From: an uncultured Armatimonadia bacterium
GTDB taxonomy: Bacteria; Armatimonadota; Zipacnadia; CAVVLO01
Assembly (NCBI GenBank): GCA_963749155.1
Contig: CAVVLO010000001.1
Coordinates: 320,001-384,000, forward strand
DNA: 64,000 bases
Reading direction: 5' to 3'
A program made the translations under genes and the position numbers. The notes beneath the pieces are model-generated. The model saw only the letters and a list, made by a program, of their open reading frames with translations, made no database searches and was not told the DNA's origin. Shown piece by piece: positions 19,851 to 40,667 of the stretch. Each line of letters starts with the position of its first letter. The stretch's first letter is position 1.

Positions 19851-25814
<5,964 letters not shown>

Positions 25815-25884
25815 GCGTTAACGAGGGGGGCGGGCGCCGCTCGCCCCCTCTTCAATGGACTATGTAAAACCACTTTATCGCCAG

Positions 25885-25911
25885 GCAGGAGATTCTCTGC
25901 CGGAGAGCGAA
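25885..25911 (+). promoter_or_regulatory. sigmaH-like promoter GCAGGA-N16-GCGAA of PD40 unit 1
   Basis: Exact consensus; both boxes are conserved in all three units although the surrounding leader has diverged. Confidence 0.65.
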
Positions 25912-25961
25912 ATCCAATTTCAAACTCTCTTGCCCCGTAAATACTAAATGAGGTGACGTAA

Positions 25962-26907
25962 ATGGCTTCGCGCCACAAACTTCTCTTGAGATCCGCTCTC
26001 GCTGCCCTCGCTGTCTTTCTGATACTCAGTCTCTTGCTCGCCGGTTGCGGCGGCGGAGGCTCTTCTCCCGACCTGGTTAGTCAGATCGCCTTCGCAAGCG
26101 CCCGCGACGGCAACTATGAAATTTACGTGATGGACGCGGATGGGAGCAACCAGACCAACCTGACGAACAACGCCGCTTGGGACATATAGCCCCAGCTGGT
26201 CACCTGACGGCAGCCAGATCGCCTTCGCAAGCGAACGCGACGGCAACGAAGAAATCTATGTGATGGATGCGGATGGGAGCAACCAGACCAACCTGACGAA
26301 CAACGACTATCAGGACGACATACCCCATGCTGGTCACCCGATGGCAGCCAGATCGCCTTCCAGCAAGGCGACACGCGACGGCTAATCTACGAGCGAATCT
26401 ACGTGATGGACGCGGATGGTAGCAACCAGACTCGCCTGACGAACAACGCCGACTCTGACGACTACTGGCCCAGTTGGTCGCCCGACGGCAGCCAGATCGC
26501 CTTCGTAAGCACGCGCGACGGCAACTAGTGAGATCTACGTGATGGACGCTGATGGGGCGCAACCAGACGCGCCTGACGAACAACGCCGCTTACTGACGAA
26601 TCACCCCAGCTGGTCACCAGACGGCAGCCAGATCGCCTTCACCAGCGAACGCGACGGCAACTATGAGAGCTCTACGTGATGGACTCCAATGGCAGACCAA
26701 TATCCAACGACTCACCGAACAACGCTGCTGAATGATGACATGCCCCAGCTGGTCGCCAGATGGCAGCCAGCTCGCCTTTCACAGCGACCGCGACGGCAAC
26801 TATGAGGTTTATGTGATGGACGTCGGATGGCAGCAACCAGCTCAATCTGACTAACAACGCCGCTGACGACGGAGACCCCAGCTTGGGGACCGATGCCCGC
26901 CCTCTGA
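25962..26907 (+). pseudogene. PD40/TolB-like beta-propeller lipoprotein, copy 1, many indels (pseudogene or poorly polished consensus)
   Basis: Lipobox LAGC-GGGG, then about six ~132-nt repeats encoding [33 protein letters not shown] that switch frame repeatedly; ends WGPMPAL-TGA like its paralogues. Confidence 0.85.
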
Positions 26908-26978
26908 TATCTGCACCTTGAGGGGGGCGGGCGCCGCTCGCCCCTTTCATTTGACGATAAAAACCACTTTTTCGCCAG

Positions 26979-27005
26979 GCAGGAGATTTTTTGCTGGAGA
27001 GCGAA
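26979..27005 (+). promoter_or_regulatory. sigmaH-like promoter GCAGGA-N16-GCGAA of PD40 unit 2
   Basis: Exact consensus within the repeated leader. Confidence 0.65.
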
Positions 27006-27054
27006 ATCCAACTGCAGACCAACTTGCCTCGCAAATACTAATGAGGTGATGCAG

Positions 27055-27972
27055 ATGGCTTCAATCTCCAAGCGCCCCGGTTTACTCGTTCTCGGTTTCC
27101 TTGCTGTGTTTCTTCTACTAGGCCTTTGCCTTGCCGGTTGCGGTGGAGGCAGTTCGTCTCCTGACTTGCTAAGCATGATTGCCTTCTCGAGTACCCGCGA
27201 TGCCAACTTGGAGTTATACATAATGGATTCTGATGGAACTGGTCAGACCCGCTTAACCAGCAACGCTGATCCTGATTACGAACCGAGTTGGTCGCCAGAT
27301 GGCACTCGCCTCGCCTTCAGAACCTACCGAAATAGTAATGATGAGATCTATGCGATAGACTCCGATGGGGCCAACGAGGTCAACTTGACCAACAATTCAG
27401 CCTCCGATATTGGACCCAGCTGGTCGCCCGACGGAACGATGATTGCCTTCGTAAGCAACCGTGATGGTAACTGGGAGCTCTATGTAATGGAGGCCGATGG
27501 AAACAATCCGACACGCTTGACTGACAACGCGGTTGGTGATTTGGCGCCCACCTGGTCACCTGATGGCGAGTGGATCGCCTTCGTGAGTGAACGTGATGGT
27601 AACTGGGAGCTCTATGTGATGCAGGCTAATGGGGCTAACCAGGCGCGTCTGACCAACAATACTGTCGAAGATAACTATCCCAATTGGTCCCCTGACGGCA
27701 ACAAGCTAGCTTTTATGAGTGAGCGTGATGGCAATTGGGAGATCTACTCGATGGATGCAAGTGGGCTCAATCCTGCGCGCCTGACCAACAACGCAGCATC
27801 TGACTCACGACCATGTTGGTCGCCCGACTGCAGCCAGATTGCCTTCGTCAGTAATCGCGACAGTAACTGGGAGATCTATGTGATGGATGCCGACGGGAGC
27901 AACCAGACCAACCTGACCAACAACGGATCCTCCGACAGCCACCCCACCTGGGGACTGGTTCCAGCCCTCTGA
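27055..27972 (+). CDS. PD40/TolB-like beta-propeller lipoprotein, copy 2
   Basis: GAGGTGA RBS; lipobox LAGC-GGG; six 44-aa repeats [21 protein letters not shown]. Confidence 0.92.
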
Positions 27973-28044
27973 TATCTGCACCTTGAGGGGGGCGGGCGCC
28001 GCTCGCCCCCTTACAGTTGACGATAAAAACCACTTTTTCGCCAG

Positions 28045-28071
28045 GCAGGAGATTTTTTGCTGGAAAGCGAA
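28045..28071 (+). promoter_or_regulatory. sigmaH-like promoter GCAGGA-N16-GCGAA of PD40 unit 3
   Basis: Exact consensus within the repeated leader. Confidence 0.65.
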
Positions 28072-28121
28072 ATCCAACTGCAGACTCTACTTGCCTCGCA
28101 AATACTAATGAGGTGATGCAG

Positions 28122-29030
28122 ATGGCTTCAATCTCCAAGCGCCCCGGTTTACTCGTTCTCGGCTTCCTTGCTGTGTTTCTTCTACTAGGCCTTTGCCTTG
28201 CCGGTTGCGGTGGAGGCAGTTCGTCTCCCGACTTGCTCAGTATGATTGCCTTCACCAGTAATCGCGGAGGTTATAGCATCTACGTGATGACTAGTGATGG
28301 CACTAATCCAGATCAACTGACCGGCGATCTTGCTGCAGAGAATTACCCCAGCTGGTCGCCTGACGGCAGCAGGCTTGCTTTCAGCTGCAACCTCCCTGGG
28401 AACGATGAAATTTACCTTATGAACGTCGATGAGACCAATCTGACACGCATCACAGATAACGCTCTGACCGACACAGAACCTGCCTGGTCACCTGATGGAA
28501 CTAAAATTGCCTTCCGGCGATACCAGGATGGCAATAACGATATCTATGTGATGGATATCAATGGGTCGAACGAGACACGCCTTACCGACAATCCGGCACA
28601 GGACACTTCTCCCTGTTGGTCGGCCGATGGTAGCAAAATTGCCTTTATGAGCGAGCGCGATGTCAACCGTAATATCTATGTGATGGACGCTGATGGATCG
28701 AACGAGACCCGGCTTACAGATAGCAGCTTTGAGGATATCTCGCCAGCCTGGTCTCCCGACGGCGCCCAGATTGCTTTCTCAAGCAATCGCGACGGCAACT
28801 ACGAGATCTATGTTATGGATGCCAATGGCACCAATATTCAGCGAATTACCAACAATGCGGCCGAAGACAACCTGCCCAGTTGGTCACCCGATGGTAGTCA
28901 ATTGTGCTTTGTGACTTTCCGCGATAGCAACTGGGAGGTATACTCGATGGACGTGGATGGCTCCAATCAGGTGAACCTAACTAATAGCGCCACCTACGAC
29001 GGAGAACCAGCCTGGAGTCCAGCCCTCTGA
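28122..29030 (+). CDS. PD40/TolB-like beta-propeller lipoprotein, copy 3
   Basis: First 44 aa identical to copy 2; six PD40 repeats; ends WSPAL. Confidence 0.92.
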   Translation: MASISKRPGLLVLGFLAVFLLLGLCLAGCGGGSSSPDLLSMIAFTSNRGGYSIYVMTSDGTNPDQLTGDLAAENYPSWSPDGSRLAFSCNLPGNDEIYLMNVDETNLTRITDNALTDTEPAWSPDGTKIAFRRYQDGNNDIYVMDINGSNETRLTDNPAQDTSPCWSADGSKIAFMSERDVNRNIYVMDADGSNETRLTDSSFEDISPAWSPDGAQIAFSSNRDGNYEIYVMDANGTNIQRITNNAAEDNLPSWSPDGSQLCFVTFRDSNWEVYSMDVDGSNQVNLTNSATYDGEPAWSPAL

Positions 29031-29081
29031 TATCTGCACCTTGAGGGGGGCGGGCGCCGCTCGCCCCCTCTTCTCCTCCTC

Positions 29082-29107
29082 GCAGGAAGCCGCCTTGCTT
29101 TGCTGAA
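29082..29107 (+). promoter_or_regulatory. sigmaH-like promoter motif GCAGGA-N15-CTGAA(T)
   Basis: Motif copy upstream of GTG 29144, heading the 29144-35150 operon. Confidence 0.55.
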
Positions 29108-29143
29108 TCCTTTCGGCAGTAAGTCTTGCGGGAGGCGACCCCT

Positions 29144-31430
29144 GTGCGCATCTCACTAACGATTCTGATAATCATCTCATCTTCAATCCTGGCCTTCACT
29201 CCTGCTTTCGCCCAGGAGGGCCCCGCCGACTGGCAAGAGGGCTATCAGCGCCTCTCGGCGCTCGGTTCGGGTTTCCTGGTCTGGGAATCGAGCCGGTCAG
29301 GTGACTGGCGAATCTGGCGGATGGAACTCGACGGTACAGGCCTCCGCCAGCTCTCCCCGGATGAGCCTGGTCGCGACCACTATTGCCCCCACCTCTCGCC
29401 CGACGGCACCAGGCTGGTGTATCAGAGCTTCCCCAAGGACCTCAACACTTACGGCGAATATAAGACTGGCGAGCAGATCCCCCTCCACCTGCTGAGTAGC
29501 GATGGCAAGTGGGATCGCATCCTTGCGGAGGACTCCCGCGCGTATGGAGAAGACCGGTGCGCTGTCTGGCTGGACGACGTGAATCTCATCTACCTCGATG
29601 GCACCCGGGTCACTCGCCGCCTCAATGTCGAGACCGGCGAGTGCGTCGAACTCGCCCGCTACTCAGCCGATAACGCCTCTCTTCTCCGCACCGCCGGCTG
29701 GCTCATCAATCCCACCCTCACCTGGGCGACGACCGGTTCGCCCTGTTTTGCGCCGTATGATGCCCTGACCGGTCAGGTCACGCCTCGCCAGTGGCAGGCC
29801 GGTTGCCAGCCTTACCTGACTCGCGATGGGAAGTGGGGCTTCTGGATGCACAAGGCCGGCGGGCCAGTGGGGAAGCTAAGCCTGGTGGACGGGGAGATTG
29901 GGGAGATTATTGGAGAGAGCGACGCTCGACTGCCCGCCGACCGCCGCTATGTGTTCTTCCCGATGATCTCTGCGGATATGAGGCTCTTCGCCTTCGCCGC
30001 CTCGAAGGGGCAGTATGATCATTTTTACACCGACTATGAGGTGTTTGTCGCGCAGCTCAATCCCGAGACGCTGGAGCTCGTGGGCGACCCGGTGCGGTAC
30101 ACCTTCGATCCAGGCTGTGACCGCTTTCCCGATGTGCATCTCGAGGCGCCGGAGCCGGACACTCGCTCCGATCTGACCGCACCCGAGGTCCGTCGCGCGT
30201 GGGCACAGGACGACCACACCCTCATCGTCACCTTCAGTGAACCCGTCTACACCGGCAAGCTGAAGGTCAGCCTGAAACCCAGCCTCGGCCTCGCCTCAGT
30301 CGAGCTGACAGGCGAGGCGATGCGCCTGGTGCTGAAGCTGAAGCAGCAACTTACCGGTCCGGTGAAGTTAACTCTCGACAAGGTGACCGACCTCGCTCAG
30401 CGCCCAAACAAGCTCGCGAAGACCACTCTCGAGGTTGCTCCTGTGGTCTGGCCGACGTCTGCCGAGGGTCTGGTCTATCTCTTCGAGACAGGTGCTACCC
30501 CTAATCTGGTCACCGATGAAGCCACGGGGCAGCAAGTCTCCTATCCTCTGAAGCCCAGCGGCCTGGCGCGACTCGATCACAACTGGTGGCTGCTCTGCAC
30601 GAGAGGCGCCTGGCAGGTTGAGGGTGTTGGAGAACGGCTGGTCGAAGCCTGCAAGGCCAGCAATCAGCTGACTCTCGAAGCCGTGCTGACGCCGGAGAAT
30701 GCCACCCAGGGTGGCCCAGCGCCCATCATCACTCTGGCGGGGGAGGACGGGAAGCCAGTTTTCACGCTCGGGCAGGAAGGCGACTCGCTTGGGCTGCGCT
30801 TGCGCACCGAGGGAGGAGCCCGGCCCCGCTGTACCCTTTGCAAAGCTGAGCGCCGGGGGCCTTGCCCATGTGGTCATCACCTATCAACCAGGGCGACTTG
30901 CAGCTTTCGTTAACGGCGCCAGGGTTCTGGACGTAGACGACCTTGAGGGCGGCTTTGCGGACTGGACACCAGCCGACTTGAAGTTTGGCGGTGGCTGGAT
31001 GGGCGCCGCGAGCCACCTGGCCCTCTACTCGCGCGCCTTGTCCGATGAGGAGGCCCTGCGAGAGAGCAGCTATCTGCCGCCCAAAGCCGAGGTGGCCGCT
31101 TCCACCGTGCGCGTAAGACTGCTTGGCCGCGCCGAGATGCCGACCCTTCAGACCATCCTGCCCTACCGCGTTGCGCTAGTGGAGGGCGACTTCGAAGTTG
31201 TGGAGACCCTTTCCGGTCCGCCTCTTTCCGGTAAACTGCGCATCGCCCAGTGGGCTCTGCTTGATGGCATCCAGCTTGCGCCGATGCCGGTCGCCCCTGG
31301 CGAGCTCGCTGTCCTCACCCTGGAGCCCTTCGAGGCCAATCCGCAACTCGAAAGTGTGTTCCAGGCGGACAGGCTTGAAGGCGATTGGGATCTACCGCAG
31401 TATTATGATGTGAATCCAAACCAGCTATAA
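29144..31430 (+). CDS. Secreted multidomain protein: TolB-like propeller, Ig-like domain, LamG/ConA-like domain (frameshift near 30820-30830)
   Basis: Signal peptide ending AFA-Q; VWESSRSGDWRIWRMELDGTG, PHLSPDGTRLVY; LIVTFSEPV; LTLEAVL; after the shift HVVITY...FVNG...LALYSRALSDEE. Confidence 0.75.
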
Positions 31431-31446: not shown

Positions 31447-32831
31447 ATGCCAGCGCGACCGAAACTCGCTTTCTGCCCCATCGGCAAGTTCGTCTTCAGC
31501 CACGAAGATGCTCTGCGTTACAAGCGCTTGCTTGAAGCAAAGCTTGGCGCCTGGGACGTGGACTTCGTCGGGCTGGACGGCGTCATCCCCGATGGGCTGA
31601 TCCGCTCTCACGACCATGTAGAAGCCGCCGTGCGCCACTTCGCCGGGCAGGGGGTGGATGCGCTCTTCCTGCCCCACTGCAATTTCGGCACCGAGGGCGC
31701 CGCTGCCCTCATCGCGCGAGATTTGGGCGTGCCCACGCTGCTCTGGGGCCCTCGCGATGAAGCTCCCCTGGCCGACGGCACGCGCCTGCGCGACAGCCTG
31801 TGCGGGCTGTTCGCCACCAGCAAGGTGCTGGGCAAGCTGGGGGTGCCTTTCTCCTATATCGAGAACTGCCGCCTGGAGGAGCCTGCCTTCGAAGAGGGCT
31901 TCAAACGCTTTATGGCCGCCGCCAACGTCGTGAAGCGCTTCAGGCGGATGCGAATCGGTCAGGTCGGCCAGCGGATAGACTTCTTCTGGACCACCATCGT
32001 GAACGAATCCGAGCTGCTGGAGCGTTATCAGATCGAGGTGCTGCCGCTCGATATGGTCGAATTCATCGAGGCGACGCGCCAGCTCGTGCGCGATCGTCAC
32101 GCCCAATACGAGCCGAGCTTGCCGGACTGCGACAGCGTTTCAGCTTCGAGGGTTATAAGGACGATGAGCCTCTGCTCAACCTGCTGGGCGCGCGCGACAG
32201 GTTGCTCGAGCTCGTCGAGGAGAAGCGCCTGGACGCCCTCTCGGTGCAGTCTTTTATGTCCATCTGCGATGCCCTTGGGGGCCTGGTGGAGTTCGCTTGC
32301 GCCCTCGTCGCCGATGCGGGGGTGCCACTTGCTTGCGAGAGCGACCTCCACGGGGCAATCAGCGCGGTGATGCTCTCGGCGGCCACGCTCGAGACGGAGC
32401 CCATCTTCTTCGCCGATCTCACCATCCGCCATCCCGAGGACGACAACGGCATCCTGCTATGGCATTGCGGCTTCCCTCCGAGCCTGGCAGGAGAAGGCTG
32501 CAGGCCGCGCGTGGGCGACCATTGGATCCTCCCCGGCGAGCTTACCGGTTCTTGCCACTGGCGGCTGAAGGAAGGCCCTATCACCGTCTTCCGCTTCGAT
32601 GGCGACCGGGGGCAGTATTCCGCCATTGCGGGGCAGGGAGAGAGCCGGACGGGGCCTGAGACCCTCAATACTTATGTCTGGATGCAGGTCGCCGACTGGC
32701 CCACCTGGGAGCGCGCCTTCATCTACGGGCCGTATATCCACCACGTCGCCGCCTGTTATGGGCAGCGCGCCGCAGTGCTGAAGGAAGCCGCCCGCTACAT
32801 CCCCGGCCTTGCTTTTGAGGAGTTGCCCTGA
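31447..32831 (+). CDS. L-fucose/L-arabinose isomerase family protein (frameshift near 32110)
   Basis: LPHCNFGTE, LWGPRDE..L.DG.RLRDSLCG, CESDLHGAIS, ADLTIRHP, LWHCG, GPYIHH. Confidence 0.85.
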
Positions 32832-35150
32832 TGCCCGACCCTGGCGCGCACCTGTGGTATGACAGGCCTGCGGGCCCCTTCACCGAGGCGCTGCCAGTTG
32901 GCAATGGCCGGCTGGGCGCTCTGGTTTTTGGGGGGATCACCCACGACAAGCTGGTGCTGAACGAGCAGTCGCTCTGGTCAGGCTCACCGCAGGACGCCGA
33001 CCGCCACGACGCCCACGAGGCGCTGGAGGAGCTCCGCTATCTGCTGCTCGCGGGCAAGCCCGTCGAGGCGCAGGCGCTGGTGATGGAACGCTTCATCTGC
33101 GCGGGCGCAGGCAGCGGACAGGGGCAGGGCAAATCGGTGCCTTTCGGCTGCTATCAGACCCTCGGCGCGCTCGAGACTGGACTGGCAACTGCCCGAGGGA
33201 GAGCCTAAGAATTATGTCCGGACGCTCGACCTCGAGACTGCCATCGCGACCACGAGTTTCACGCTGGAAGGCGTACTGTACCGGCGGCAGGTGTTCGCAA
33301 GTGCGCCTGCTGAAGCTTTAATCGTTCACCTCCTGGCCGACCGGCCGGGCAAGCTGACCTTCACCGCGCGGCTCTCCCGGCCCGAACGCGCCTCCGTGGA
33401 GGCCGTCTCCGCCACGGAATTGCTAATGACCGGCCAACTTGAGAGTGGTTCTGAGGCGCCTGGGATGCGTTTCGCCGCGCGCCTTGAGGCAGTTGTCGAG
33501 GGCGGCAAGGTGGAAGCGATCGATGGAGCGCTTTCCATCAGGGGCGCTGACGAGGTGTTGCTCTTTATCACCGCCGCGACTGACTATCAAGGCTTCGCCG
33601 GACGCCGCACCCTCGATCCGGTCGCCGCGAGCCTGGCCGATATTGAAGCCGCCGCTTCCCAGTCCTGGCGAGCGCTGCTCTCCGCGCATCTGGCCGACCA
33701 TCGGCGCTGGTTTGACCGCTGCAAGCTGGACCTGCCAGAAGGCCCCTCTTCCCACCTGCCTACCGACCAGCGGCTTGCGGCTTTCGCCAAAGGCGAGGCC
33801 GATCCGGCGCTTGCGGCCCTCTACTTTGCCTATGGCCGCTATCTCCTGATCGGCAGCTCTCGCCCAGGTGGCCTGCCCGCCAACCTGCAAGGGCTTTGGG
33901 CTGAGGAATTGCAGACGCCCTGGAACAGCGATTACCACCTCAACATCAATGTCCAGATGAATTACTGGCCCGCCGAGGTCACCGGCCTGTCCGAGCTTGT
34001 CGAACCCCTGGTTGCGCTGACCGAGTCGCTGGTCGAACCAGGTGGTCGCACGGCGCGCCACTATTATGATGCTCCTGGCTGGGTCGCGCATACGGTGACC
34101 AATGTTTGGGGGTTCACCTCACCCGGCGAAAGCGCCCACTGGGGCGCGACGCTGACCTGTGGCATCTGGCTGTGCGAGCATCTCTTCGACCACTATGCCT
34201 TCACGGGCGACCGCACCTATCTGGCACGTGTATGGCCCGTGCTGAGAGGCGCGGCCGAGTTCGCCCTGGCCATCCTGGTAGAAGAACCCTCTCACGGCTG
34301 GCTTGTAACCGCCCCGTCCAACTCGCCCGAGAACAGCTACCGGCTGCCTGACGACCACGTGGTGTCGCTTGCCCTCGGCCCGACGATGGATATGCAGCTA
34401 CTCCGCGAGTTATTTTCCAACTGTATCGAGACCTGCCGCGTGCTGGGAGTGGACGGCGATTTCTCGCGCAAGCTGGAAGCCGCCCGGGCGCGCCTTGCGC
34501 CCAACCAGATCGGCAAGCATGGCCAGTTGCAGGAATGGCTTCAGGACTGGGAGGAAGTGGAGCTTCAACATCGCCATACCTCCCACCTTTACGGTCTTTA
34601 TCCGGCCTCCGAGATAACCCCAGAGGGCACTCCGGAGCTTGCCGAAGCCGCCAAAGTGACGCTGGCGAGGCGCGGAGATGTCGGTACCGGCTGGTCTCTG
34701 GCCTGGAAGGTCGCCTTCTGGGCGCGCCTCCTGGATGGCGACCATGCACTGAGGCTCCTCGCCCAACTGCTGCGGCCGGCTGGCGGAGGCGTGGACTATG
34801 CTGGCAACGGCTCCGGCACTTATCCCAACCTGTTCTGCGCTCATCCGCCTTTCCAGATGGACGGCAACTTCGGGGGCTCGGCAGCCATCGCAGAGCTGCT
34901 GCTCCAGAGCCACGCTGGAGAGCTTCACCTGCTGCCGGCCCTGCCCGCGGCCTGGCCGGAAGGGCGCGTGAAGGGCCTTCGCGCGCGCGGCGGCTTCCAG
35001 GTGGACCTCGCCTGGGAGGAGGGACGACTGACCGAGGCCGTAGTTCGTTCGACCCTCGGAGGGCGCTGCGTGGTGCGGTATGGTACGACTCGGCAAGAAC
35101 TCGCCACCGAGCCAGGCGGCGTCTATCACCTCGGCCCGCCGCGCCCTTAG
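32831..35150 (+). CDS. GH95 alpha-L-fucosidase (frameshift near 33175)
   Basis: [96 protein letters not shown]. Confidence 0.95.
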
Positions 35151-37088
35151 GGGAACATATTAAGCGTCTGCAGTCCTGTGACGATGCCGAAAAGGTTCCA
35201 CCAGGTGGCCATCAGGAACTCTCCGAGCACCAGCCCGAGGAAGAAAGGCAAGGCCGTGCGGTAGAGGCGCAGGCCTCCGTAGCGCATTATAAGCAGCTTC
35301 GCGAGCCAGGCGATGAAGAAGGACACCCACAGCAGGTTGGTAGACCAGTTGCCCGCCAGCGCAAAGCCCACCGGGTGGAAGGGGAACCACATCAGTCGCA
35401 TACGCAGGGTGTTGAGCAACAGCGTCAGCCCCAGCCCGCCCCCAGCAGCCCAGGCGGCGCGTATTTCCGGCTGGCCTGTCCCGCGCAGGAAAGACTCCAG
35501 CCTGGCCCAGGGCTCCATACCGAACCAGCGCGGGCTCTGCATCTTCGCAAGTGCCCCAAACTGATACGCCGCGTGAAGCTCTGCCCACAGGCCCGACAGG
35601 AAGCCGACCCCGAGCGCCAGCATCATCGCCCAGGCAAGCTTCCGATAGCCGAAATGACCGCGCTCGGCCAGCTTGAAGCCTTCCAGCTGCAGAGGCATCG
35701 GGTGCGAGCGATACGAGCGGTTGTACCACCAGTTCAGGGTCATCCCAATGAGGTTCTCCCTGCCCAGCCTGTGCGGCCCGATAAACTTCGGTAGCAGACT
35801 GTCAGGCCCCACCAGGTAGAAATCCTGCACCGGCGGGCCAAGTTCGGCTCTCATCCGCGCCTGCGCGATGGCCAGTGCGATATAGATGGCGAGGAAGGCC
35901 ACCGTGAGCCAGTTGGCCATCCCCACGAAACGCCCGAAAGCGAACAGGATTATCAACCCGCCCAGCGCCCCGAAGGCCGCTACGCGATACGGCAGCGGTT
36001 CTCGTTCATCGTCAAGCTTCTCGCCGCGCTTTGTGATGGAAGAGAGCAACCCCAGCAGGTTGCGCCTGCCTGTCCACACCGCAAAGACGAAAAGCCCAAT
36101 CAACGCGCCAAAGGACTGCTCCGCCGGCCAGGGGTAGCCTGGTGTCTGGCTCCACCCGACCAGCGCGCCGAAGACCAGTTGGGCCTTCAGCAGCAGGTAG
36201 AAGAACCACGCCGAGAAGGACAGCTCCACCGGAAGCAGTACGCCAAGGCCTACCGCGAAGGGATACAGGCGCAGCGGAAACCACCCGACCGCGTTCCAGG
36301 GCGGCACTACAAGGTAGGTCTGCAGGTCGATGGCCTTCAAGTTGAGACTCGGCACCGCCGGATAAAGTGTAGTCAATCCGGCCAGTATGTCCTGCGAGGC
36401 CGCAAGCGCCAGGCCAATCCACAGCAGCCTGTTGCGGAAGAAACGCCCCGGATTGGAGGTTAGCTCCAGCGGCAGCAAGGTGAGCGGGTAGGTCAACCGC
36501 TCGCGCTCTGTCCACTGCTTGCGCAGCAGCGTGGTGAAGCAGAGCAGCACGAACGTCAGTACGAGGAAGAAGCGCCATCCAGGCAAGCCCTGGCACCAGC
36601 CAGGCCTTCACCACCGGCCAGGTGTAGAAGGTCGTTGCTCCCTCGAAGAAGCCCTTCACCGCCTCCGGCTGACGCACGGTCAGCCAGGTGGGCAGCCGGT
36701 CTATGAACAACTCGTCCCACTGGTTTTCGGCGGTCGCAAAGCGGAAGGGGTAGACGATTACTGGTACCAGAATCTGCAGCATATCGTGGCTTGGCGCCAC
36801 CGAGACAAGCTCTGCCATTATGTATATGGTGAGCAACTCGGCCTGCGTAAGGGCCTTGCTCGGTAGCCAGCGCTTAAGTGGCGCATTCAGGACGAGTAGT
36901 ACGAGCAGTAAGGTGATGGCATTGTAGAAAAGCGCAAGGCAGGTCGGGTGGCCTGTGTATTTCACGCTCTCGGCCAGATACAGCCAGTAGGAGTTGAAAG
37001 GCGCAAACAGCAGCGCAATAAAGACCGCGCGCAGCGTAACGCCGCGCGCAAGGGACTTGCCAACTGAAGAGTATTCCGCCTGTTGCAT
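35147..37088 (-). CDS. Polytopic membrane protein, DUF6785/DUF6784 type, putative transporter (frameshift near 36570-36590)
   Basis: [71 protein letters not shown]...PFFLGL; many TM segments. Confidence 0.8.
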
Positions 37089-37190: not shown

Positions 37191-40100
37191 ATGAGCAGAC
37201 TTGCGCTGATTGTACTGGCAACGATTGCCCTGTTTAGCTGTTTGACGCCACTTTGGGCCGCTGGCGAGTTGGCTGCCGGCTTCAACACTCCGCCCGACTG
37301 GTCAAGGCCCTGGGTTTACTGGTTCTGGCTGAACGGCAACATAACGCGCGAGGGCATCACCCTCGACCTCGAAGCGATGGCGCGCCAGGGCATTGGCGGC
37401 GTGCTTATTATGGAAGTGGACCAGGGCGCCCCGGTAGGCCCGGTCGACTTTGCCAGCGACGAGTGGCGCGACCTGTTCAAGTTTGTCTGCAGCGAAGCCG
37501 ACCGGCTTGGCCTTGAGGTTAATATGAACAGCGACGCCGGCTGGAATGGCTCCGGCGGGCCGTGGATCACCCCAGCCCTCGCGATGCAAAAGGTGACCTG
37601 GAGCGAGACCCCTGTCACCGGCCCCTCCTTCTTCGATGCCGACCTGCCCCAGCCGGCGACGGTTTGGGATTATTACCAGGACATCGCCGTGCTGGCTGTG
37701 CCAGCTACCGACTGGCGCATCCCTGACATACTGGCAAAGCGGCCTTCCGTCGGCAGGATTTCGGCAACCAGGCTAGCTATGGAGAGGCTCCCGAAGGCCA
37801 GAGCGTCCCGCGCGAACAGGTACTTGATATTACGTCCTCCATCGTTGCCCCAGGCCACCTGCACTGGGATGTACCTGAGGGCAAGTGGACGATCCTGCGC
37901 TTCGGTTTCACGCCAACCGGCGCGGTCAATGGTCCCGCCCCCGCCTCGGGTACTGGCCCTGAGCCTGACAAGCTGAGCAAGGCCGGTGCAAAGGCCGCAA
38001 TTGACGGCTTCATCGGCAAGCTGGCCGACCGATAATGCGTCTCTGACCGGCAAGAGCTTCGTCCGCACCCATATTGATAGCTGGGAGAACGGCTCACAAA
38101 ACTGGACTCCCTTGATGCCGCAGGAGTTCGAGGCTCTGCGCGGCTACGACCTGAAGCCCTTCCTGCCCGTCTTCACTGGCCGCGTCGTGGACAGCCTGGA
38201 GATCTCAGAGCGTTTCCTTTGGGATCTCCGCCAGACCGTCTCCGACCTGCTGCTCGAAAATCACGCCGGCGAGATGGCCCGCCTGGCCGCTCAGCACGGG
38301 ATGGGCCTCTCAATCGAGGCTTACGGCGACACGACAGTGGATAACCTCGCCTACGCGGGCCGCGCGGACGAGCCGATGGGCGAGTTCTGGTCCTGGCCGT
38401 CCTTCGGCGCGGAGGGTACGCTGACCGAGATGGCCTCGGCGGCCCATCTCTACGGGCGCCCGATCGTCGGCGCAGAAGCCTTTACCGCCGGCGATGGCGA
38501 GAAATGGCTCTACGATCCCGCCTACATCAAGTCGATGGGCGACCGCGCCTACTGCCTGGGCATCAACCGGTTCGTCTTCCACCGGTATGCTATGCAGCCG
38601 TGGACCGATCGCCGTCCTGGGATGACGATGGGCCCCTGGGGCCTGCATTGGGAGCGCACCCAGACCTGGTGGGAAGAGTCCGGCGCTTATCATCAGTATC
38701 TGGCCAGGTGCCAGTTCCTCCTGCAACAAGGGAAACCTGTTGTAGACCTGCTCTATCTGGCGCCTGAAGGCGCCCCGCGCGACTACAATGTGCCTCCTTC
38801 ACTCGAAGCCACTGGTTATAAGGGCGATGCCTGCCCCACCGAGATAGTCCTGGAGCGACTTTCGGTTAAGGATGGCCTGCTGGTGACACCCGAGGGGATG
38901 AGCTACCGCGCCCTCGTGCTGCCTGGCTCGCCCACGATGACGCCAGAGCTGCTGGCGAAGCTCTCCTGGCTCGCTCGGTCCGGCGCAACGATCATCGGCC
39001 CGGCGCCGGAGAAGGCTTGCGGCCTTACCGGCTATCCCGAAGCTGATGCCGAGGTCGCCCAGGCTGCCGCGAAGCTGTGGGAGAGCGGCCGTATACTGCC
39101 ACCGCAGGAGCCAACCGAGTGGCTGGCCAAGCGCGGCATCGCGCCCGACTTCACCTCGGACCGTAACCTCGCCTTCGTCCACCATCAGATTGGCGACCTG
39201 GACCTTTACTTCGTCTCCAATCCCTTCAAGCACGCGGTCAACGCCACTTGCATCTTCCGGATGAAGGACAAGCACATCGAGTTGTGGGATCCCGAAACCG
39301 GGCAGATTTCGCCAGTCGCCTCCTGCCAGCCTTATGGCGACCAGACGCTGCTGCCGCTGCGTTTGGAGCAGTCCCAGGCTGTGTTCGTCGTCTTCAGGCC
39401 GGGCAAGCCCACCACTCCAGTGGTTTCCTACATCACGGAGGCAGGCGCGCATATATGGCCGGCCGAGACCGCCCAGTCTCCGGTGACTATCCTTCGCGCC
39501 ATCTGGGGCCCCAGGCGTTCCAGAGATGTCACAGGCTATGTACAGCGCATCGTGGACAGCGGCCGCACCAGCTTCCCCGTGTTGGAGCTGCTTGGGGCTG
39601 GCGATCCCGCGCCTCAGATCGTGAAGACGCTTACCGTGGATTATGAAGTCGAGGGCAAGCAGCTCTCGGCAGCCGCCAAGGATGGGGAGACTATAACCCT
39701 TCAGGCGCCGAGCGGCGCCAAGGTCGCCATCACGCGCGCCACCTGGGGCCCGACCGGCGATGAAGAGCGCTTCAAGGACGTCACCGAGCAGGTGCAGCAA
39801 CTGCTGGACAGCGGGCGCAAGAGTTTCGTTGTGGCCGAACTCGCCAGTAAGGGCGATCCCGCTCCCAACATCGTGAAGACGCTGGATGTCGAGTATGAGA
39901 GCGAAGGCCAGCAATACCAGGTCTCTGCCACCGATTCGGAATCTATCTACTTCCAGTTGCAAGAGGATGAGCAGCCCCGCCTGATGCCCTTCCGCGATGC
40001 CGGAGGCGCGTTGAAGCTCGAGGTCAGCCAGGCCGGCGAATATGAAGTCGTCCTGAGTGACGGCTCCTCGCGCGCCTTCACCGGAGGCGCTCCGCGTAAA

Positions 40101-40667
40101 ATTGACGTGCTCGGAAGTTGGGACCTGACCTTCTCCGAGGGCTGGGGCGCGCCTGCGCGCGCGACTTTCCCGACGCTGACAAGCTGGAGCGACTCGCCTG
40201 ATGAGGGCATCAAGTATTTCTCCGGCACCGCAACCTATCATAAGACCCTCCGCCTGCCGCGTGGCCTGTTCGGAGCTGACCGAAGGATCTGCCTCGACCT
40301 CGGCCGGGTCGCCTCGATGGCGCGCGTTAAGCTCAACGGGCAGGACCTTGGCCTGCTGTGGAAGGCGCCCTTCCGCCTCGACATAACCAAGGTGGCCAAG
40401 CCAGGCGACAATCAACTGGAGATTGAAGTTACCAACCTCTGGCCCAACCGGATGATCGGCGATGAGTTCTTGCCCGAGGACAGCGATCGCTGGTCCAATG
40501 GCACACTCAAGGCCTGGCCCGACTGGCTCGAAGAGGGCAAGCCCAGCCCCACCGGCCGCTTCACCTTCACCTCGTGGCGGCTTTGGCACGAGGGAGATGA
40601 ACTGCAGCCCTCCGGCCTGCTTGGCCCTGTCACTGTGACTTCGACGCAGTTGATCTCGCTTGATTAG
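37191..40667 (+). CDS. Secreted GH106 alpha-L-rhamnosidase-like protein (frameshifts near 37740 and 38030)
   Basis: F..PP..SRPWVYWFWLNGNITREGIT.DLEAM, GWNGSGGPWI, HIDSWENG.QNWT, PMGEFW, VGAEAFT, GINRFVFH, IKYFSGTATY, EVTNLWPNRMIGD, SGLLGPV. Confidence 0.92.

Follow-up and report, generated by a model that had tools for sequence, protein, structure and literature searches.

The 64-kb stretch analysed here (the window) covers positions 320001 to 384000 of contig C1 of genome G000, the 4.17-Mb, seven-contig assembly, rated 100% complete, of an uncultured Armatimonadia bacterium. It contains a tandem array of three genes for small PD40 propeller proteins, predicted lipoproteins, with a hairpin before, between and after the genes (Table 1). 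We consider it likely that the array is a cluster of tandem paralogues shaped by homologous recombination between conserved end blocks—a known pattern, and no new cassette system. What is observed is the anatomy of the array, a junction identity of 96% against cores close to synonymous saturation, core alleles that are stable elsewhere, and one recombinant junction. The mechanism we propose is that the shared blocks of gene end, terminator, promoter and signal peptide recombine homologously; this would likely keep the junctions alike and would likely gain or lose whole units, while the old propeller cores would stay distinct as the junctions homogenise. The array is thus a clean case, from an uncultured lineage, of old propeller cores whose junctions have been homogenised, and of modest importance as such.

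Conserved junctions around divergent cores

Each array unit is self-contained, with a promoter-like motif, a ribosome-binding site (RBS), a signal peptide, a propeller and a terminator-like hairpin. The hairpins start at 25823, 26920, 27985 and 29043, spaced 1097, 1065 and 1058 nt apart; the first and fourth share an identical stretch of 31 nt, with which the second and third agree over 25 and 27 nt, and the same 20-nt 3' tail precedes hairpins 2 to 4. These periods, and the identity of the outer pair, bear out the layout described in a first-pass annotation of the sequence. The annotation had also read three units with a lipoprotein signal and six blades, which holds for the intact copies 2 and 3; copy 1 has no intact open reading frame (ORF).

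Junctions 2 and 3 align with 284 identities, 11 mismatches and 2 gaps (96%), and junction 1 is about 75% identical to both; an earlier estimate of about ten differences was right for the former pair and does not extend to junction 1. The contrast with the cores is sharp: at four-fold degenerate sites, copies 2 and 3 differ at 3 of 29 positions within their common leader, whereas their cores differ at 37 of 55, near synonymous saturation, which agrees with the strong DNA divergence noted before. Synonymous differences run throughout the two cores. Against an unlinked paralogue at C1:897 kb, copies 2 and 3 differ at 27 of 37 and 19 of 34 four-fold sites, a level like that between their own cores (in the four-fold and blade comparisons the last register of this paralogue is off by one residue). 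Blade-by-blade identity between copies 2 and 3 is not above that for shuffled blade order (p 0.21), and a quick tree of 80 proteins, with copy 1 omitted, leaves the two unresolved on long branches with low support, and not as supported sisters. Since the four-fold sites of the cores are near saturation and blade order carries no signal, we conclude that the cores are old and the junction identity is recent.

Other samples bear on whether this identity is real. Eight of 24 listed sequencing runs were compared, all as contigs, and no run had more than 20% of the words; most apparent joints in these contigs are blade cross-matches from other organisms and were disregarded. In contigs of independent runs, the shared leader continues into the copy-2 core (X2, 27088-27316, with 5 differences) and into the copy-3 core (X1, 28193-28367, and X3, 28175-28325). 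Because both cores are reached in this way, the junction identity is not a collapsed-repeat artefact, the possibility that the annotation itself had raised against its reading.

The cores of copies 2 and 3 have GC contents of 0.54 and 0.52, and 0.60 and 0.57 at third codon positions (GC3), in a genome with a GC content of about 0.59 and a median GC3 of 0.69. The cores had been described as lower in GC than their surroundings, and they are; the unlinked paralogues are equally low (0.52 and 0.54), so the low GC is a trait of the family.

A similar pattern is known from the immunity-gene arrays of streptococcal tipC and Staphylococcus aureus esaG. According to the available text of Garrett et al. 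2022 (PMC9484751), these are tandem paralogues with conserved blocks that recombine, leading to loss and expansion; in tipC the blocks are the 5' and 3' ends. The tipC and esaG proteins differ in fold, and the array here has no known cognate toxin or secretion system. The annotation had instead likened the array to the S. aureus lpl genes, which are also tandem lipoprotein paralogues, but with the geometry reversed: in the accessible part of Tsuru and Kobayashi 2008 (PMC2568036), lpl genes have a conserved centre and variable ends, the paralogues are rearranged by homologous recombination, and a 3' end, the intergenic region and the next 5' end move as one unit, whereas the array here has conserved ends and a variable core. 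The closer match is tipC.

Copy 1 and other populations

Relative to copies 2 and 3, copy 1 carries 14 insertion events, 28 nt in total, and no deletions. This amounts to about 15 frame changes per kb, whereas 14 control genes show 2 in 19.7 kb. The blades of copy 1 are 82% alike in DNA. At 26189, 26554 and 26882, contigs of other runs (possibly from other organisms) lack the extra base. Taken together, the lesions of copy 1 probably reflect consensus or assembly error and not decay, and the gene would then be intact in vivo. Copy 1 is perhaps poorly assembled since only part of the population carries it; its cover is low in X4 and X8, at depths of 2-5 that are too shallow to count as evidence.

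Fragments of both cores, copy 2 and copy 3, turn up again in X2, X3, X4, X5, X6, X7 and X8 with 0-2 differences per 150-440 nt, and in X1 at about 96% identity. As the cores recur nearly unchanged across samples, they are stable alleles and neither hypervariable nor rapidly varying. X1 also shows the end of a copy-1-like gene with the hairpin and junction 2 behind it; elsewhere, too, copy 2 thus has a unit upstream of it.

A different junction occurs in X4. There, a 230-nt contig (depth 4.95) matches 25825-25869 exactly and continues with 26965-27141 at 13 differences in 177 nt; over this second segment junction 1 differs at 47 of 179 positions. This places the crossover in the promoter region, some 16 nt downstream of the hairpin. 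Read from the sequence, the contig represents either loss of unit 1 or conversion of the unit 1 leader, and in either case the exchange would lie past the hairpin. With homogenised junctions in the array and another junction in another population, the annotation's broad suggestion of a recombination-driven locus is partly supported.

One could take the array instead for a fixed, ancient three-gene cluster in which copy 1 is a true pseudogene, the junction identity stems from one old conversion, and copy number is no longer changing. The near-invariance of the core alleles between samples would fit, as would the X1 contig in which a copy-1-like end precedes the hairpin and junction 2, and the evidence for variation is a single low-depth contig. 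We nevertheless regard a fixed cluster as quite unlikely: all 14 lesions of copy 1 are insertions, at a rate far from that of the controls, the three sites without the extra base in other runs (maybe from other organisms) speak for an intact gene, and the X4 junction is unlike all three junctions of the array.

Hairpins, family arrays and the question of mobility

The stem of each hairpin measures 12-14 bp (z -2.0 to -3.8) and gives way to a short run of pyrimidine-rich sequence. Every hairpin lies 8-12 nt past a stop codon; that of the GH99-like gene is 8 nt before hairpin 1. From these features the hairpin would act as a terminator, and a simple terminator scanner flagged just the copy at 26929. 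Allowing at most 4 mismatches, the 26-nt hairpin core occurs in the genome at these four sites only, which rules out a common genome-wide terminator. A relaxed pattern finds five genome copies, the fifth directly behind the unlinked paralogue at C1:897-898 kb, where the hairpin follows the gene and no copy stands upstream. The hairpin thus travels with the gene family.

The motif GCAGGA-N16-GCGAAA is present in each unit, and we take it to resemble a SigH-type promoter. The genome encodes a SigH-like sigma factor (268 bits, cut-off 295). The strict motif has nine genome sites, of which the array supplies three; as six control -10 boxes give 0-4 sites, the enrichment is weak; a sigma-70 promoter scan returned 0 sites. 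Each unit may therefore be transcribed from its own SigH-type promoter and end at its own terminator, as judged from these signals. The Tt-RpoE1 promoter, given as tGTTAC-N16-CGTC in the available part of its source (PMC3397946), was considered as the identity of the motif and rejected, the sequences not matching.

The stem resembles a GTAG-type family of repetitive extragenic palindromes (REPs) with about 25 copies in G005, 20 in G009, 16 in G011 and 14 in G065; the GTAG-REP pattern has some match in 55 of 79 genomes, mostly near the control level. This likeness invites a reading in which the hairpin is a REP, and the array is built and reshuffled by a REP-associated tyrosine transposase (RAYT) working in trans. 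REP families of its own are present in G000, as are two Y1 transposase-like genes; one of these is flanked by a REP that shares its outer stem with the array hairpin, and the accessible text of Ton-Hoang et al. 2012 (PMC3333891) reports that the Escherichia coli TnpA-REP cleaves and recombines bacterial interspersed mosaic elements (BIMEs) in vitro. The array hairpin is, like REPs and BIMEs, a GC-rich imperfect intergenic palindrome, with an outer stem similar to that of the REP family of its class. That same text, however, gives GTAG as required for binding and cleavage; the array hairpins have no GTAG 5' of the stem, whereas the abundant REP of G000 does, and they differ from it in inner stem and loop. 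Moreover, there are only five copies, the paralogue's included, the spacers are gene-bearing and of kilobase size, no RAYT is adjacent, and the nearest Y1 gene is about 72 kb off. In E. coli, amplification junctions show no preference for REPs in the part of the study available (PMC1428787). We find the REP reading very improbable.

The two Y1/RAYT-like genes of G000 lie at C1:88,200-88,900 and C1:417,000-435,000, each beside its own palindrome family (~30 copies; 72 pattern matches). A third palindrome of this genome, with 19 matches, occurs in BIME-like composite repeats of about 200 nt, and locus L200 (G011:C164:6800-7350) has seven REP-type hairpins in tandem, spaced 87-91 nt.

No match to the recombinase families searched lies within the window, which agrees with the earlier remark that no recombinase is near. 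The genome has two tyrosine recombinases, XerD and a XerC/D-like protein, and six serine-recombinase matches, all remote from the array (C1:949-951 kb and C2:4-9 kb). An integron integrase was not found in G000 (TIGR02249, best 74.6 bits, cut-off 265), and an integron cassette array is rejected for lack of an integrase in the genome; by eye the array holds no RYYYAAC/GTTRRRY pair, the motif we assume for attC, and it has no credible Rfam match. A diversity-generating retroelement is rejected as well: reverse transcriptase PF00078 was not found in G000 (it is present in 3 of 14 controls), and mismatch rates by copy-1 base (A 0.29, C 0.38, G 0.29, T 0.23) show no adenine bias. Viral origin was rejected on 0 matches of the hairpin pattern in viral sequences and on 0 of 8 candidate stretches encoding a relative. 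In a metagenome scan, the hairpin pattern gave five matches, all at unrelated loci with no homology to the array locus past the hairpin.

Tandem arrays of the family are widespread. Of 77 GTDB loci with close homologues, drawn from the best 80 of 575 confirmed stretches among the matches listed, 26 carry PD40 ORFs in tandem; in 17, mostly from Poribacteria, there are at least three and up to 11; this count counters the annotation's suggestion of an undescribed system. Five Poribacteria contigs (L099, L061, L083, L068 and L089) carry 7-11 small PD40 genes in tandem, joined by short junctions that are partly homogenised. Some junction pairs in the Poribacteria arrays reach 0.89-0.93 identity. 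G026, of the same class as G000, has two copies with a duplicated leader, and the blades of G014, G026 and G034 are about 80% alike. The literature searched—mostly non-subscription journals—yielded no description of tandem PD40 lipoprotein arrays, and a Poribacteria paper mentions, in its available part, only abundant WD40 domains (PMC3909097).

Another tandem array of G000 lies at C2:1,003,000-1,015,000, with three units of about 3.9 kb that each encode two large paralogous proteins. Its units are 87-97% identical with variable 3' parts, a related GC hairpin stands at each internal junction, and a similar junction is found at C3:63.8 kb. The N-terminus of these proteins is presumably S-layer homology (SLH)-like, and a variable surface-protein locus is possible.

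Some family members elsewhere stand between direct repeats. In G014, from another family of the same class (L032:7300-8400, on G014:C15), one PD40 lipoprotein gene is flanked on either side by a version of the final ~37 nt of an LptD-like gene; G029 (L045) and G073 (L141) share the flanking genes without the insert. At the same site G026 has two family members, and G019, G072 and G074 have none and carry other DNA. On a Dehalococcoidales contig (L107:5810-7070), a PD40 gene stands between two ~130-nt copies of the promoter and first ~22 codons of the downstream gene, which we take to be argS; the upstream copy is in frame with the PD40 ORF.

Such cases suggest that the ~1-kb unit might be an integrase-free mobile cassette, a circle having integrated by a single crossover at the terminator behind the GH99-like gene, duplicating the terminator, with more cassettes that carry different cores added later. 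The identity of the outer hairpins over 31 nt would follow, the G014 and L107 repeats would be parallels, a similar stem follows the GH99-like orthologue of G011, and blade order gives no sign that the cores of copies 2 and 3 have a recent common origin. We nevertheless judge this unlikely. Neither an empty-site allele nor a circular form was seen at the array locus in the contigs of the eight runs, where an X8 contig extends out of the GH99-like gene as far as 25852 and closes with 15 unmatched letters; the single observed crossover lies outside the hairpin; and the three direct-repeat cases have no common target sequence. Additionally, no flanking repeat scores 34 or more at three unlinked G000 paralogues or at a further, more distant PD40 gene, and decayed islands, or duplication followed by deletion, could equally leave such repeats. 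With the crossover past the hairpin, the hairpin present at an unlinked paralogue and no empty site seen, the annotation's proposal of insertion at a palindromic site by a dedicated system is not supported. GH99-like orthologues of other families, too distant to serve as empty sites, have a PD40 ORF of at least 200 aa nearby in 0 of 10 loci.

In its broadest form, the cassette idea would make small PD40 binder genes cross-phylum, integrase-free expression cassettes of about 1 kb that integrate by a single crossover at short homology, leave target duplications of 30-130 bp, and stack into repertoires of TolB-face binders, possibly decoys for envelope-targeting proteins. We hold this doubtful; if a cassette reading were true, it would mean gene gain without integrases and a prokaryotic binder repertoire.

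Several points count against recombination between conserved end blocks, the reading that we prefer. All variation of the array comes from one X4 contig of depth ~5, matched at 90% likeness; it could be a partial conversion or a third allele and not loss of unit 1, and 4 of the 6 listed X4 differences match junction 1. No contig from the compared runs spans the whole array, and GTDB gave no same-family genome for comparison. The homologous-recombination model leaves unexplained why the outer hairpins match over 31 nt and the inner ones over 25 and 27 nt. Nor is the sharp contrast seen here general: for the Poribacteria arrays, the mean identity of the junctions does not consistently exceed that of the cores. 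Finally, flanking direct repeats (score at least 34) are somewhat enriched, at 9 of 63 arrays and singletons, among them the array here, versus 5 of 139 control ORFs taken from overlapping loci (Fisher p 0.013, with a post hoc threshold and loci that are not independent), and several of the nine look like dispersed repeats of Poribacteria or promoter look-alikes.

Predicted proteins and the surrounding locus

Copies 2 and 3 have a LAGC lipobox at residues 26-29 behind a basic N-region and a hydrophobic H-region, read by eye, and match PD40 (PF07676) at 195 bits with repeats at an exact period of 132 nt. The model of copy 3 has a pLDDT of 95.5 and superposes on the TolB propeller (1c5k) with a TM score of 0.93 and a root-mean-square deviation of 2.1 A. 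The array proteins thus share the fold and the 44-residue repeat of the C-terminal six-bladed propeller of TolB (PF07676; 1c5k, 2hqs, 4r40), but they differ from TolB in having a lipobox, several paralogues and much more similar blades, in lacking the N-terminal domain, and in scoring below the TIGR02800 cut-off (243 and 250 bits against 343). The TolB N-terminal domain PF04052 was not found in G000 and is present in 2 of 14 controls.

Across 168 blades the scaffold hardly varies, and the six most variable positions, counted from the Trp of WSPDG, are -6, -4, -3, +10, +12 and +17. The annotation had placed the variation mainly in the loop before P.WSPDG; positions +10, +12 and +17 vary to about the same degree, and synonymous differences extend through the whole core. 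From chain ranges and TolB alignments, TolB H246 and T292 fall at blade positions -6 and -4, and an E. coli TolB H246/T292 double mutant is unable to bind Pal in the accessible text of its report (PMC7066135). The variable positions of the array would thus include the equivalents of these Pal-binding residues, which suggests a diversified binding face, presumably the one by which TolB binds Pal. The proteins are best read as predicted lipoproteins acting as membrane-anchored binders, and the copies probably bind different ligands.

Blade amplification has precedent: repetitive beta-propellers amplified from single blades are described in the available text of Pereira and Lupas 2022 (PMC9218822). 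Likewise, blades of one gene resemble each other about as much as, or more than, they resemble a paralogue's corresponding blades; that work, in the part available, concerns blade amplification and not whole-gene arrays with homogenised junctions. The family is very large and unstudied (2258 proteins at E 1e-60 or better among 8000 scored), and variable residues that include the Pal-binding equivalents of TolB make for a well-defined ligand screen. A leader-only protein search for further alleles passed 0 of 63 candidates, and a full-length search gained none, with nothing above 58% identity among the matches listed.

Table 1. Features of the array and its immediate neighbours (positions in the window)
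Feature	Position	Strand	Remarks
GH99-like glycoside hydrolase gene, 438 aa, upstream of the array	24498..25814	+	PF16317 33.9 bits, cut-off 33
Hairpin 1, terminator-like	25823..25853	+	Same as hairpin 4 across 31 nt
Putative SigH-like promoter motif of unit 1 (GCAGGA, 16 nt, GCGAAA)	25885..25912	+	
Copy 1, PD40 lipoprotein gene (predicted), frame broken	25962..26907	+	14 insertions (28 nt), 0 deletions
Junction 2: 3' tail, hairpin 2 (from 26920), promoter motif (26979-27006), RBS, first ~44 codons	26896..27190	+	96% identical to junction 3
Copy 2, intact 305-aa six-blade PD40 protein with lipobox	27055..27972	+	
Junction 3: 3' tail, hairpin 3 (from 27985), promoter motif (28045-28072), RBS, first ~44 codons	27961..28257	+	
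Copy 3, intact 302-aa six-blade PD40 protein with lipobox	28122..29030	+	pLDDT 95.5; TM 0.93 to TolB propeller
3' tail and hairpin 4 (29043-29073)	29023..29073	+	
Downstream gene with a single weak PD40 match, outside the repeat	29126..30913	+	Own GCAGGA box upstream, near 29082

Elsewhere in the window, several genes seem split over two frames (21258-24507, 29126-31430, 31447-32831, 32831-35150, 35147-37088 and 37191-40667, among them a GH2 beta-galactosidase), which suggests indel errors in the assembly. Within a carbohydrate-use region, positions 19851-21365 on the minus strand encode a membrane protein with an internal TIR_2 domain (PF13676, 48 bits). Three more GH99-like paralogues, two of them adjacent, lie at G000:C6:6,600-15,600.

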